Shown piece after piece: positions 45,388 through 54,160 of a DNA stretch of 64,000 bases; the stretch's first letter is position 1; the number at the start of each line of letters is the position of its first letter. The stretch is from Escherichia coli (GTDB taxonomy: Bacteria; Pseudomonadota; Gammaproteobacteria; Enterobacterales; Enterobacteriaceae), in assembly GCF_030384885.1 (NCBI RefSeq), contig NZ_CP128613.1; one strand, given 5' to 3'. Below the pieces are notes generated by a model. That model ran no database searches, was not told the origin of the DNA, and saw only the letters and a list, made by a program, of their open reading frames with translations. Made by a program: the position numbers and the translations under genes.

Positions 45388-45439
45388 CCGAATTTCGATT
45401 AACGCTCAGTCTCTGACTGAGAAAACTGGAAGCATGCTA

Positions 45440-50263: not shown

Positions 50264-50562
50264 TCCCCTTACAACATGGACTGATCCTCGCGGCAATCTT
50301 ATTCGTTCTTGGCTTAACCGGTCTGGTTATCCGTCGCAATCTGCTTTTTATGCTGATTGGTCTGGAAATCATGATTAACGCCTCTGCGCTGGCCTTTGTG
50401 GTCGCCGGAAGCTACTGGGGCCAGACCGACGGTCAGGTGATGTACATTCTCGCCATCAGCCTCGCGGCGGCGGAAGCGAGTATCGGCCTTGCGCTGCTGC
50501 TGCAACTTCACCGTCGTCGCCAGAACCTGAACATCGATTCAGTAAGTGAGATGCGCGGATGA
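50260..50562 (+). CDS. nuoK: NADH-quinone oxidoreductase subunit K
   Basis: 100-aa membrane ORF overlapping nuoJ and nuoL. Confidence 0.97.
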
Positions 50563-52400
50563 ACATGCTTGCCTTAACCATTATTTTGCCATTGATTGGC
50601 TTCGTCTTGCTGGCGTTCTCCCGTGGGCGCTGGTCTGAAAACGTCTCAGCGATCGTGGGCGTAGGCTCTGTGGGCCTGGCGGCGCTGGTAACCGCCTTTA
50701 TTGGCGTCGATTTTTTCGCTAACGGCGAGCAGGCATACAGCCAGCCGCTGTGGACGTGGATGTCGGTAGGCGACTTTAATATCGGTTTCAATCTGGTGCT
50801 GGACGGCCTGTCGCTGACCATGCTCTCGGTGGTCACCGGTGTCGGTTTCCTTATTCACATGTACGCCTCCTGGTACATGCGTGGTGAAGAGGGCTACTCT
50901 CGCTTCTTCGCCTACACCAACCTGTTCATCGCCAGCATGGTGGTTCTGGTTCTTGCCGACAACCTGCTGCTGATGTACCTCGGCTGGGAAGGCGTTGGCC
51001 TGTGCTCCTATCTGTTGATCGGTTTCTATTACACCGATCCGAAGAATGGCGCAGCGGCAATGAAAGCGTTTGTCGTGACCCGTGTGGGTGACGTGTTCCT
51101 CGCTTTCGCGCTGTTCATTCTCTACAACGAACTGGGCACCCTGAACTTCCGTGAAATGGTGGAACTGGCACCCGCGCACTTTGCTGACGGCAATAACATG
51201 CTGATGTGGGCGACGCTGATGCTGCTGGGCGGTGCGGTTGGTAAATCTGCGCAGCTACCGTTGCAGACATGGCTTGCCGACGCGATGGCGGGCCCGACGC
51301 CTGTCTCCGCGCTGATCCACGCCGCAACGATGGTAACCGCGGGTGTCTACCTGATCGCCCGTACCCACGGCCTGTTCCTGATGACGCCAGAAGTTCTGCA
51401 TCTGGTGGGTATTGTCGGGGCAGTGACGTTGCTGCTGGCCGGTTTTGCCGCGCTGGTACAGACCGACATCAAACGTGTTCTCGCTTACTCCACCATGAGC
51501 CAGATTGGCTACATGTTCCTTGCGCTTGGCGTACAGGCATGGGATGCGGCGATTTTCCACTTGATGACCCACGCGTTCTTTAAAGCGCTGCTGTTCCTGG
51601 CATCCGGTTCCGTCATTCTGGCCTGCCATCACGAACAGAACATCTTCAAGATGGGCGGTCTGCGTAAATCTATTCCGCTGGTTTATCTCTGCTTCCTGGT
51701 GGGTGGTGCAGCACTGTCGGCACTTCCGCTGGTTACTGCGGGCTTCTTCAGTAAGGATGAGATCCTCGCCGGTGCGATGGCGAATGGTCATATCAATCTG
51801 ATGGTGGCAGGTCTGGTCGGTGCGTTTATGACCTCGCTCTACACCTTCCGTATGATTTTCATCGTCTTCCATGGGAAAGAACAAATTCACGCTCACGCCG
51901 TGAAAGGGATTACTCACAGCCTGCCGCTGATTGTGTTGCTGATCCTTTCCACCTTCGTTGGCGCACTGATTGTACCGCCGCTGCAGGGCGTGCTTCCGCA
52001 AACTACGGAACTGGCGCACGGCAGCATGTTGACCCTGGAAATTACCTCAGGCGTGGTCGCGGTGGTCGGCATTCTGCTGGCAGCCTGGCTGTGGCTGGGT
52101 AAACGTACTCTGGTGACCTCCATCGCCAACAGTGCGCCGGGCCGTCTGCTGGGTACCTGGTGGTACAACGCCTGGGGCTTTGACTGGCTGTACGACAAAG
52201 TGTTCGTTAAGCCATTCCTGGGTATTGCCTGGTTACTGAAACGCGATCCGCTGAACTCAATGATGAACATCCCGGCTGTCCTTTCCCGCTTTGCAGGTAA
52301 AGGTCTGCTGTTAAGCGAGAACGGTTATCTGCGCTGGTATGTGGCATCCATGAGCATCGGTGCGGTCGTGGTGCTGGCACTGTTGATGGTACTGCGTTGA
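50559..52400 (+). CDS. nuoL: NADH-quinone oxidoreductase subunit L
   Basis: 613-aa antiporter-like membrane ORF. Confidence 0.97.
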
Positions 52401-52630
52401 GTTGTTGGCTGAGTGAATATACCCGGCGTTGCGCCGGGTCTGTGAACTAAGAATAAATTTTAGGTAACTGTTCCTGAAGTACAGGCGTCATCGGCGAAGT
52501 CAGACCGGATACCGCCAGCGCACAGCAACCGGAGCGTACTTAAGTACGTGAGGATTGCGAGCACTGCCGGGATTCGGGCTGGCAAGTGAGATAGCCTGAG
52601 CAGGAGTAAATATAAGGGACATACTTAGCT

Positions 52631-54160
52631 ATGTTATTACCCTGGTTAATACTAATCCCCTTTATCGGCGGCTTCTTGTGCTGGCAGACCGAACGCTTTG
52701 GCGTCAAGGTGCCACGCTGGATCGCGCTGATCACCATGGGATTGACGCTGGCGCTGTCGCTGCAACTGTGGTTGCAGGGCGGTTATTCACTGACGCAATC
52801 TGCCGGAATTCCGCAGTGGCAGTCTGAATTCGACATGCCGTGGATCCCGCGTTTTGGTATCTCTATTCATCTCGCCATTGATGGTCTGTCGCTGCTGATG
52901 GTCGTTCTGACCGGTCTGCTCGGCGTGCTGGCGGTACTTTGTTCGTGGAAAGAGATCGAAAAATATCAGGGCTTCTTCCACCTCAACCTGATGTGGATCC
53001 TGGGCGGCGTTATCGGCGTGTTCCTTGCCATCGACATGTTCCTGTTCTTCTTCTTCTGGGAAATGATGCTGGTGCCGATGTACTTCCTGATCGCACTGTG
53101 GGGGCATAAAGCTTCTGACGGTAAAACGCGTATCACGGCGGCAACCAAGTTCTTCATTTACACCCAGGCGAGTGGTCTGGTGATGTTGATTGCTATCCTG
53201 GCGCTGGTTTTTGTTCACTACAATGCGACCGGCGTCTGGACCTTCAATTATGAAGAGCTGCTGAATACGCCGATGTCTAACGGCGTGGAATACCTGCTGA
53301 TGCTGGGCTTCTTCATCGCCTTCGCAGTGAAAATGCCGGTGGTTCCGCTGCATGGCTGGCTGCCGGATGCGCACTCTCAGGCACCGACTGCCGGTTCCGT
53401 TGACCTCGCGGGGATCTTGCTGAAAACCGCCGCTTACGGTTTGCTGCGTTTCTCTCTGCCACTGTTTCCGAACGCGTCGGCAGAGTTCGCGCCAATCGCC
53501 ATGTGGTTGGGTGTTATCGGCATCTTCTACGGTGCGTGGATGGCCTTCGCCCAGACCGATATCAAACGTCTGATCGCCTACACCTCGGTTTCCCACATGG
53601 GCTTCGTGCTGATTGCTATCTACACCGGCAGCCAGTTGGCCTACCAGGGCGCGGTCATTCAGATGATTGCTCACGGCTTGTCGGCGGCGGGTCTGTTTAT
53701 TCTCTGCGGTCAGCTCTATGAGCGTATCCACACCCGCGATATGCGCATGATGGGCGGTCTGTGGAGCAAGATGAAATGGCTGCCAGCACTGTCACTGTTC
53801 TTTGCGGTGGCAACGCTTGGGATGCCGGGCACCGGTAACTTCGTCGGCGAATTTATGATTCTGTTCGGCAGCTTCCAGGTTGTCCCGGTGATTACCGTTA
53901 TCTCTACCTTTGGGCTGGTCTTTGCATCTGTTTATTCGCTGGCGATGCTTCATCGCGCTTACTTCGGTAAAGCGAAAAGCCAGATTGCCAGCCAGGAACT
54001 GCCAGGGATGTCGCTGCGTGAGCTGTTTATGATCCTGTTGCTGGTGGTGCTGCTGGTACTGCTGGGCTTCTATCCGCAGCCGATTCTGGATACCTCGCAC
54101 TCCGCGATTGGCAATATCCAGCAGTGGTTTGTTAATTCCGTTACTACTACAAGGCCGTAA
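52631..54160 (+). CDS. nuoM: NADH-quinone oxidoreductase subunit M
   Basis: 509-aa antiporter-like membrane ORF. Confidence 0.97.
   Translation: MLLPWLILIPFIGGFLCWQTERFGVKVPRWIALITMGLTLALSLQLWLQGGYSLTQSAGIPQWQSEFDMPWIPRFGISIHLAIDGLSLLMVVLTGLLGVLAVLCSWKEIEKYQGFFHLNLMWILGGVIGVFLAIDMFLFFFFWEMMLVPMYFLIALWGHKASDGKTRITAATKFFIYTQASGLVMLIAILALVFVHYNATGVWTFNYEELLNTPMSNGVEYLLMLGFFIAFAVKMPVVPLHGWLPDAHSQAPTAGSVDLAGILLKTAAYGLLRFSLPLFPNASAEFAPIAMWLGVIGIFYGAWMAFAQTDIKRLIAYTSVSHMGFVLIAIYTGSQLAYQGAVIQMIAHGLSAAGLFILCGQLYERIHTRDMRMMGGLWSKMKWLPALSLFFAVATLGMPGTGNFVGEFMILFGSFQVVPVITVISTFGLVFASVYSLAMLHRAYFGKAKSQIASQELPGMSLRELFMILLLVVLLVLLGFYPQPILDTSHSAIGNIQQWFVNSVTTTRP

Follow-up and report, generated by a model that had tools for sequence, protein, structure and literature searches.

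The nuoL-nuoM junction

The window analysed here is a stretch of 64,000 nucleotides from Escherichia coli (contig NZ_CP128613.1), and the subject of this study is the spacer between nuoL and nuoM in its nuo operon. A sequence-only reading of the window had described a gap of about 230 bp in an otherwise tightly packed operon. The gap is exactly 230 bp, since the last base of nuoL is 52400 and the first of nuoM is 52631, and the open reading frame list shows the adjacent nuo cistrons either overlapping or separated by 6-11 nt. The GC hairpin that had been pointed out, CCCGGCG-TTG-CGCCGGG, is present at 52422-52438 and no run of T follows it. What had been taken for further GC-rich palindromic segments is one long imperfect palindrome (52482-52599), which is a copy of a dispersed repeat. 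The features of the junction are given below in window coordinates.

50559 to 52400, + strand: nuoL coding sequence, TGA stop at 52398-52400 (open reading frame list and annotated nuoL in matching E. coli records)
52393 to 52675, no strand assigned: horizontally shared block, comprising the last 8 nt of nuoL, the entire spacer and the first 45 nt of nuoM
52401 to 52481, + strand: left part of the spacer, 81 nt, single-copy (blastn)
52421 to 52439, + strand: 8-bp GC hairpin ACCCGGCG-UUG-CGCCGGGU, 21 nt past the nuoL stop, without a U-tract
52440 to 52481, + strand: AU-rich linker of 42 nt between the two hairpins, a candidate RNase E entry segment
52482 to 52599, + strand: imperfect palindrome of about 117 bp, copy of an RSA-like/ERIC-like repeat (covariance-model match 52474-52615)
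52531 to 52552, + strand: apical module GGAGCGTACTTAAGTACGTGAG, 22 nt, the tip of the palindrome
52614 to 52619, + strand: likely nuoM Shine-Dalgarno AAGGGA, as read from the sequence, ending 11 nt before the ATG at 52631
52631 to 54160, + strand: nuoM coding sequence (open reading frame list and homologues), which starts ATGTTATTACCCTGGTTAATACTAATCCCC in the 230-bp allele

Predicted folding energies of the spacer and its parts were compared with those of shuffled sequences. A52421 and T52439 extend the GC hairpin to a stem of 8 bp with a dG of -16 kcal/mol (z -4.1; 0 of 200 shuffles were as stable), and the sequence that follows it is CUGUGAAC. The palindrome is predicted to fold as RNA into a single hairpin with an MFE of -55 kcal/mol (z -4.9; again 0 of 200 shuffles as stable), its + strand being more stable than its - strand (-55.0 versus -47.3 kcal/mol). 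Its apical module consists of a 6-bp stem (5 Watson-Crick pairs and a closing G-U), a UUAA loop, and a GGA/GA internal loop beneath. This long hairpin ends 15 nt before the nuoM Shine-Dalgarno. The linker is weakly structured, with the segment 52440-52485 folding at -8.2 kcal/mol (z -1.0, not significant), and the fold of the entire spacer reaches -89.6 kcal/mol (z -4.5). By these predictions the structure of the spacer is far above chance.

The spacer sits within the nuo transcription unit. The scan of 52300-52750 gave no terminator-like site on either strand, and the GC hairpin lacks the U-tract of an intrinsic terminator. For σ-70-like sites (-35 and -10 hexamers at a spacing of 16-18 nt), a consensus scan, which is weak evidence in itself, gave none on the + strand and one on the - strand (52637-52609), where 0.5 were expected. 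Having neither a promoter-like nor a terminator-like signal in the direction of nuo, the spacer should therefore be co-transcribed with its neighbours. The sequence-only reading had also considered an internal promoter as a means of setting distal-subunit stoichiometry; nuoMN would then be transcribed separately. The best -10-like hexamer, TATAAG (52611-52616), lies in the AT-rich 30 nt upstream of nuoM and overlaps the Shine-Dalgarno, so that a transcript starting just downstream would be left without a ribosome-binding site. Despite the length of the spacer and this AT-rich segment, such a promoter is unsupported, there being no σ-70-like site on the + strand, and we regard it as most improbable. 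A search of Rfam 15 returned chance-level miRNA matches only for the spacer (E at least 0.5), and the nuoG RNA alone for the whole window.

Spacer alleles and exchange of the block

The 230-bp allele was found in 723-724 of 5426 complete E. coli genomes (13%), O157:H7 and EPEC E2348/69 among them, and all its copies are at least 99% identical. Its left part (52401-52481) has one place per genome in 724 genomes by blastn, only in carriers of the allele. The remaining E. coli genomes (87%), K-12 included, have an unrelated spacer of 163-165 bp which departs from the window just after TGAGTT and rejoins it only at the nuoM ATG. This K-12-type spacer contains a REP, GTAGGTCGGATAAGCCGCCTTCGCGGTGCATCCGACA, that is multi-copy in E. 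coli. In Salmonella enterica serovar Rissen, Citrobacter braakii and Enterobacter kobei the spacer is a basal form of 76 bp, and the 169-bp spacer of Klebsiella pneumoniae is that basal form with two REPs added. An invariant GAATTCGTTGAAAATC, a small hairpin, AAGGAAT directly before the ATG and the nuoM start ATGTTACTACCCTGGCTAATATT are common to the K-12, Klebsiella and 76-bp alleles, and the window allele shares none of them. The counterpart of its Shine-Dalgarno AAGGGA in other genera is AAGGAA.

A hairpin stands directly before the nuoM Shine-Dalgarno in every allele examined, the nuoL stop is followed by a stable hairpin in both long E. coli alleles, and the K-12 allele runs analogously to that of the window, from REP hairpin to linker, small hairpin and Shine-Dalgarno. 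The comparison of strains and genera speaks against a conserved determinant of the operon, because the allele is present in only 13% of complete E. coli genomes and is largely a dispersed repeat, and because it is unrelated to the spacers of K-12, S. enterica, Citrobacter, Enterobacter and Klebsiella. Rather than being a conserved regulatory determinant of nuo, the 230-bp spacer is an insertion of mobile DNA.

Outside E. coli, the allele is also found in species whose flanking genes are diverged. The spacer is identical at 229 of 230 positions to that of Salmonella enterica subsp. arizonae CCUG 6322T and to that of Escherichia whittamii, and position 52584 is the single difference from both in the whole of 52393-52675. 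Identity to the window is given below for the spacer and for the adjoining 300 nt of each gene.

S. arizonae: spacer 229/230; last 300 nt of nuoL 87.0%; first 300 nt of nuoM 88.7%
E. whittamii: spacer 229/230; last 300 nt of nuoL 93.3%; first 300 nt of nuoM 96.7%

Over whole genes, S. arizonae has 87.3% identity to the window in nuoL and 89.0% in nuoM. At the start of nuoM, the window differs from K-12 at 52637, 52646, 52652, 52657, 52666 and 52676 and then not before 52801, and at 52676 it differs from all compared sequences. The K-12-type codons at the nuoM start are common to K-12, S. enterica, Citrobacter, Enterobacter and Klebsiella. Since 52393-52675 is nearly identical inside flanks of 87-96% identity, the block has been exchanged horizontally; since five other taxa have the K-12-type codons, it is foreign to each of these, and ultra-conservation by vertical descent is very unlikely.

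A functional RNA, cis-regulatory or small, that is inherited vertically under extreme purifying selection could also give a 229/230 identity across genera together with a strong predicted structure. It would have to be conserved beyond rRNA, since rRNA itself varies more between these genera than this spacer does. The identity also extends over synonymous sites at the start of nuoM (first 45 nt), a stretch in which K-12 and four other genera have a different sequence in common; the 76-bp spacer of S. enterica, Citrobacter and Enterobacter is unrelated; within E. coli the allele has a patchy distribution (O157:H7, E2348/69); and no Rfam family matches. We therefore consider vertical conservation of this kind very improbable. 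In search of a donor, a metagenome scan with the left part of the spacer gave one contig, which is E. coli-like.

The palindrome as a dispersed repeat and its relatives

The right part of the spacer occurs elsewhere in enterobacterial genomes. A second copy lies between the pheM attenuator and pheS (CFT073, K-12) and is about 81% identical to the nuoL-nuoM copy, with which it shares 117 bp; including outer inverted repeats, it measures about 141-150 bp, and the outer 12-16 nt of the nuoL-nuoM copy deviate from the family consensus. Of the base pairs that differ between these two copies, 4 have changed on both sides and 2 on one side without loss of pairing, and 4 no longer pair. The K-12 pheM-pheS copy is predicted to be the weaker structure (MFE -31.7 versus -53.7 kcal/mol for the nuoL-nuoM copy), and its decay suggests that selection is weak on at least some copies. 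Most E. coli, MG1655 among them, have a third copy in the pyrH-frr gap; it is missing from O157:H7 ATCC 35150, a presence/absence difference of 142 bp relative to MG1655 in which the junction between occupied and empty sites is not clean. No target duplication flanks the nuoL-nuoM or pheM-pheS copies. Further copies are found in xylA-xylB of Yersinia frederiksenii, in queA-tgt of Salmonella and, in an Erwinia MAG, ahead of a TPP riboswitch. PLSDB gave matches in Klebsiella, Citrobacter and Pantoea records, which do not establish that plasmids carry the repeat, several of these 'plasmids' being mislabelled chromosomes. Per E. coli genome the repeat has a median of 4-5 places; with the pheM-pheS copy as query the median is 5. 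In an alignment of eight sequences, CCGGAGCGTAC, GTACGTGAG and GAGCAC do not vary, CCAGCGC and the GCC of CTGCC hardly vary, and the loop is variable (TTAA, ACGT, ACGC, ACA).

We know of no established function for the RSA repeats, to which this family probably corresponds. RSA is listed in the original K-12 GenBank annotation as an intergenic repeat of 150/151 bp with 6 occurrences (PMC5172473, Table 1). The present family is likewise intergenic, and the pheM-pheS query finds 6 places in the K-12 derivative ER1709. Copy number and approximate length are the basis of the assignment, and the 150/151 bp of RSA are to be set against the 142-bp pyrH-frr difference, the pheM-pheS copy of about 141-150 bp and the 117 bp shared by nuoL-nuoM. 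The nuoL-nuoM copy differs from the listed repeats in being absent from K-12. The RefSeq record NC_000913.3 has no repeat features at the repeat loci, and in the searched literature nothing relevant was found on nuoL-nuoM spacer elements or on the core sequence of the repeat. RU-3, a 103-bp repeat (Delihas 2007), was rejected as a candidate; its published sequence is a REP pair unrelated to the window repeat. The spacer is a foreign allele in which a little-known kind of repeat, RSA-like and probably related to ERIC, has a new location that varies between strains, and in its identity as a repeat-bearing, horizontally shared allele we have high confidence.

The tip of the palindrome has a far wider distribution. 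The exact 22-mer GGAGCGTAYTTAAGTACGTGAG (52531-52552) was found in more than 120 stretches of other genomes in a species-representative collection, which is a lower bound, where we estimate about 0.1 matches by chance. Most of the matches listed are in Mesorhizobium, Asticcacaulis and Devosia, and the same list includes Bosea, Brucella daejeonensis, Acidocella, Listeria grayi (at least 3 copies), Pseudomonas sp. GV071, a Scalindua MAG, a Desulfobacterales MAG and gammaproteobacterial MAGs. In every case listed the tip is the apex of a hairpin of 130-170 nt, whose arms differ by taxon and follow host base composition while remaining complementary. When 52 non-redundant, non-enterobacterial members were aligned, compensatory changes were seen in 28 of 36 consensus pairs. 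That the tip looks invariant comes partly from searching with an exact 22-mer, and we discarded the notion of a tip invariant across phyla: extra copies found at these loci with a covariance model show altered loops and compensatory changes in the stem (e.g. CGGAC...GTCCG). These extra copies retain GGAGC...GTGAG and the flanking internal-loop sequences CGAGAACCGG and CCGGAAGCGCAG. The tip also resembles the sarcin-ricin loop of 23S rRNA (AGUACG-GAG-A); this likeness was set aside as probably a coincidence, since the palindromic stem accounts for the sequence and neither ERIC nor the variant tips retain it. The relatives in other phyla match nothing in Rfam, and no description of a cross-phylum hairpin family was found in Rfam or in the searched literature.

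A known repeat with a comparable tip is ERIC (also IRU, 127 bp), which is likewise a long imperfect palindrome of similar size in transcribed intergenic regions, including operon spacers. Both have the same apical architecture of GGAG, a 5-bp stem, a 4-nt loop, the stem's other strand and UGA (GGAG-CUUAC-AUAA-GUAAG-UGAC in ERIC; GGAG-CGUAC-UUAA-GUACG-UGAG in the window family), and the two tips agree at 18 of 22 positions with one compensatory pair change, from G:C to U:A. Covariance model R1, built from non-enterobacterial members only, matches the window element at 40.9 bits (E 6e-9) and canonical ERIC at 23.1 bits (E 6e-4, by a rough calibration), both matches being full-length and in the same orientation. 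The arms, in contrast, are unrelated in sequence. A second pairwise test, against the canonical ERIC of ybhJ-ybhI, found a similarity that is confined to the tip (z about 5). E. coli genomes have about 10 canonical ERIC cores against 4-6 copies of the window repeat family, and neither a TA target duplication nor the TATAC termini of ERIC were found at the nuoL-nuoM, pheM-pheS and pyrH-frr copies. These sequence comparisons suggest that the window repeat family is distantly related to ERIC within a common superfamily and is not a member of ERIC. Canonical membership had been considered and was rejected: no site in the window matches the ERIC2 primer core with 3 or fewer mismatches, and the pairwise score of 32 is not significant against shuffles (22.8 +/- 4.3, maximum 43).

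Bacterial MITEs such as Correia/NEMIS, RUP and Nezha are also small, non-coding, multi-copy and hairpin-forming, with occupied and empty sites between strains, and a further likeness is that the non-enterobacterial elements have TA-containing termini, which abut stop codons. MITEs, however, normally conserve their ends and vary in the middle, whereas here the apex is most conserved and the arms are variable yet complementary.

In the wider family, strand and orientation are biased. The strand with GGAGCG is predicted to be more stable than its complement in all 52 elements, by 13.5 kcal/mol on average, with 119 G-U pairs against 48 A-C mismatches in a hand tally of the pair table. Among the matches listed, non-enterobacterial elements between tandem genes have this strand antisense in 34 cases and sense in 5 (binomial p 2.4e-6), and the right-hand gene is on the opposite strand in 87 cases versus 14. 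The stop codon of the right-hand gene lies at the right terminus of the element in 60 of 73 unique cases among those listed (TAG 35, TGA 23, TAA 17); the abutting genes are genuine, and from their translations we take some of them to encode GAPDH, LpxB, RuvA and a PabA-like amidotransferase. The arrangement is reversed in 4 of the 5 enterobacterial copies with annotated flanks, where the better-folding strand is mRNA-sense (nuoL-nuoM, pheM-pheS, pyrH-frr, xylA-xylB), and the Salmonella queA-tgt copy keeps the general, antisense orientation.

These biases bear on whether the element acts as DNA, for instance as a cruciform or single-strand hairpin that an enzyme of transposition or recombination would recognise, or as a site bound by a protein, with its occurrence in nuo mRNA being incidental. 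A strand bias with no exception in 52 elements, combined with a strand usually antisense to the abutting gene outside the enterobacteria, would be more in keeping with oriented insertion or an intermediate of single-stranded DNA than with a sense RNA, and occupied and empty sites as well as nested insertions beside the tip point the same way. The preference for G-T wobbles, however, cannot separate RNA from single-stranded DNA, and all three E. coli chromosomal copies put the better-folding strand in the sense of the mRNA. We regard a purely DNA-level element as unlikely.

One reading would bring these observations together, and we offer it tentatively, with more doubt than confidence. The apical module (GGAGC...GUGAG, a stem-loop above a GGA/GA loop) may mark an unrecognised cross-phylum superfamily of long-hairpin mobile elements. 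It would unite ERIC, the RSA-like repeats of E. coli and the abundant elements found in Alphaproteobacteria (Mesorhizobium, Asticcacaulis, Devosia, Brucella), Listeria grayi, Pseudomonas, Scalindua and Desulfobacterales. Outside the enterobacteria these elements would insert in one orientation exactly at stop codons, one strand would be both the folded and the functional one, and a conserved machinery that recognises single strands, or an RNA function, would maintain the module. The nuoL-nuoM block would then be an inter-genus mobile intergenic allele with such an element.

Possible role in nuo mRNA

At the RNA level, a processing or stability determinant is the most plausible consequence of the spacer, judging from its anatomy and from analogy. 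A stable GC hairpin, an AU-rich linker and a long hairpin resemble a classical intercistronic processing and stability design, and would form a passive structure module between the cistrons. An endonuclease such as RNase E could enter the AU-rich, single-stranded linker; the GC hairpin would then form a cap that protects nuoA-L, at its 3' end, from 3' exonucleases, and the long hairpin would be a protective 5' end for the nuoM-N segment, which would be translated from its own Shine-Dalgarno. An effect on subunit stoichiometry would probably be modest and the element is probably not essential.

Two known systems are useful for comparison. REP/BIME elements in operon spacers (e.g. malE-malF, hisJ-hisQ) stabilise the upstream mRNA (reviewed in PMC3184786). 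In this very spacer there is one REP in K-12 and there are two in Klebsiella, and the GC hairpin of the window (52421-52439) holds the same position and could likewise act as a barrier to 3' exonucleases. It is different in being single-copy and without the REP consensus, and a REP is a third as long as the large palindrome. The hairpin was accordingly not assigned to REP/BIME (about 35 bp, hundreds of copies), the left part of the spacer being single-copy. The second system is ERIC in Yersinia, where insertions in operons are reported to alter upstream mRNA stability via RNase E in an orientation-dependent manner (De Gregorio 2005, per PMC2229807 and PMC3184786). There, too, a long-hairpin repeat is co-transcribed between cistrons, and the repeat family and the host are different. 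The Yersinia precedent (PMC2229807, PMC3184786) and the analogous layout of the K-12 allele support the processing reading. On this anatomy and analogy, a measurable effect of the spacer on processing or stability is a possibility that we rate just short of even.

The spacer has also to be considered as a neutral passenger, in which case repeat and foreign block would be selfish or hitch-hiking and tolerated, with no measurable effect on nuo mRNA or complex I; tolerance would follow from nuoM having its own ribosome-binding site. That the 230-bp allele is a minority form, that the repeat is present or absent at other loci, that the pheM-pheS copy is decaying, and that the spacer accepts REPs in K-12 and Klebsiella, as a safe site for palindromic elements would, are what one would expect of a passenger. 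It is less readily reconciled with the hairpin that all examined alleles keep just before the nuoM Shine-Dalgarno, or with the stable hairpin past the nuoL stop in both long E. coli alleles, and RNases are unlikely to overlook a transcribed hairpin of -55 kcal/mol in an mRNA of 15 kb. We consider a wholly neutral spacer to be a serious alternative and yet rather doubtful. As an explanation of the whole, we moderately favour a horizontally spread, repeat-bearing allele that may also act as a passive structure module.

Two observations concern selection on the element. As 87% of E. coli and several genera are without the allele, any function is dispensable or is supplied there by a different sequence. 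At least one sister copy is decaying.

The nuoL-nuoM junction is the only long spacer of the 13-cistron core operon, and it exists in at least four unrelated forms: the basal 76-bp spacer, one with a single REP, one with two REPs, and the foreign block of 230 bp. This natural allele series would permit a test of whether intercistronic hairpins determine how stable the proximal and distal parts of the complex I mRNA are relative to each other. The block of about 280 bp, nearly identical across E. coli, E. whittamii and S. arizonae, represents a very short inter-genus patch transfer into a core operon. The hairpin superfamily proposed here would span several phyla, with the apex most conserved, which is the opposite of usual MITEs, and with a bias for stop codons and for orientation. 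If confirmed, it would bear on what ERIC-type elements are and how they move.

The nuoL-nuoM spacer

Across all 64 kb of the window, the nuoG RNA motif was the only Rfam family to attain its gathering score, and no tRNA genes were found there. In the region around the nuoL-nuoM spacer, the consensus scan returned a single promoter-like site, directed antisense from the nuoM start into the spacer. Since one such site was observed and 0.5 would be expected by chance, it probably has no meaning.

Features of the window
45390-45432, plus strand, nuoG RNA motif (RF01748; Rfam, 50.3 bits, E 1e-7)
52637-52609, minus strand, promoter-like site ATAACA-17-TATATT (9/12; consensus scan)

In the predicted MFE fold of the whole spacer, positions 52406-52415, the first 10 nt after the nuoL stop, are paired with positions 52622-52631, the 10 nt running through the A of the nuoM AUG. 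According to this fold, the pairing would make the spacer one closed domain with the nuoM start codon partly occluded.

We compared this allele with the basal spacer, the 76-bp form whose parts are shared by K-12 and Klebsiella (S. enterica L129 825-900, Citrobacter L130, Enterobacter L132, K-12 L001 554-613 and Klebsiella L131). The 16-nt sequence GAATTCGTTGAAAATC is invariant there in five taxa (S. enterica, Citrobacter, Enterobacter, K-12 and Klebsiella), and 3' of it lies a small GC hairpin, the stem sequence of which varies from genus to genus. RNAalifold also paired AUUC..UU of the basal spacer with the Shine-Dalgarno region AAGGAAU, and this modeled pairing could serve nuoM as an anti-SD or regulatory element. 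Three features, namely GAATTCGTTGAAAATC, the small GC hairpin and the AUUC..UU/AAGGAAU pairing, have all been lost from the window allele. Position 52676 is T in the window and another base in K-12, another E. coli lineage, a metagenome contig, S. arizonae and E. whittamii (C in the last two). Judged from these sequences, the T is a private SNP directly outside 52393-52675, the block nearly identical in S. arizonae and E. whittamii.

Other enterobacterial copies of the repeat

The dispersed hairpin repeat found in the spacer also occurs at pyrH-frr and pheM-pheS.

Repeat copies at the two loci
L139 636-926, pyrH-frr spacer, occupied
L138 636-784, pyrH-frr spacer, empty
L006 1985-2135, minus strand, pheM-pheS copy (K-12 and CFT073)
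L002 1489-1630, plus strand, pheM-pheS copy (K-12 and CFT073)

The pyrH-frr copy is present in MG1655 and most E. coli but absent in O157:H7 ATCC 35150, and the occupied and empty spacers differ by 142 bp. The insertion point is the 3' side of a hairpin already existing downstream of pyrH, and the junction is imprecise, reading ATC where the site is empty and CGTAA...GA where it is occupied. In K-12 and CFT073, one copy is flanked by the pheM attenuator terminator and pheS, within the leader of an essential tRNA-synthetase operon; its hairpin is much weakened in K-12 (-31.7 kcal/mol).

Several PLSDB records with the repeat are chromosomes or chromosome fragments (CP082688.1 and NZ_CP141089.1, the records behind L135 and L137; also NZ_CP134663.1). 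One such "plasmid" is 4.9 Mb long and another bears tgt-queA-yajC; plasmid-carriage counts for the repeat are therefore inflated.

Hairpin elements outside enterobacteria

Among the matches listed (L008-L127), the non-enterobacterial elements adjoin a real gene of the opposite strand at its stop codon (for example L045 8785-8930, L037 2536-2681, L110 and L047). Judging from the translations, GAPDH, LpxB, RuvA and a PabA-like amidotransferase are among the products of these genes. The stop codon is inside the element terminus, at a distance of 59 nt from the core, the 22-nt apical module. Between tandem genes, 34 of the elements in these matches were antisense versus 5 sense, and the better-folding strand is the one antisense to the abutting gene.

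Several copies from Mesorhizobium and related taxa have other small palindromic elements nested directly next to the apical module, with junctions CAC|CGGCCTACGCCGGCCGTAGCC... and CAC|AGTTCTACTGCG... (L046 ~1274-1362, L088 12636-12849, L068 9428-9580, L033, L035, L038, L054, L057 and L103). This position suggests that the apex region of the hairpin elements is itself an insertion hot spot.
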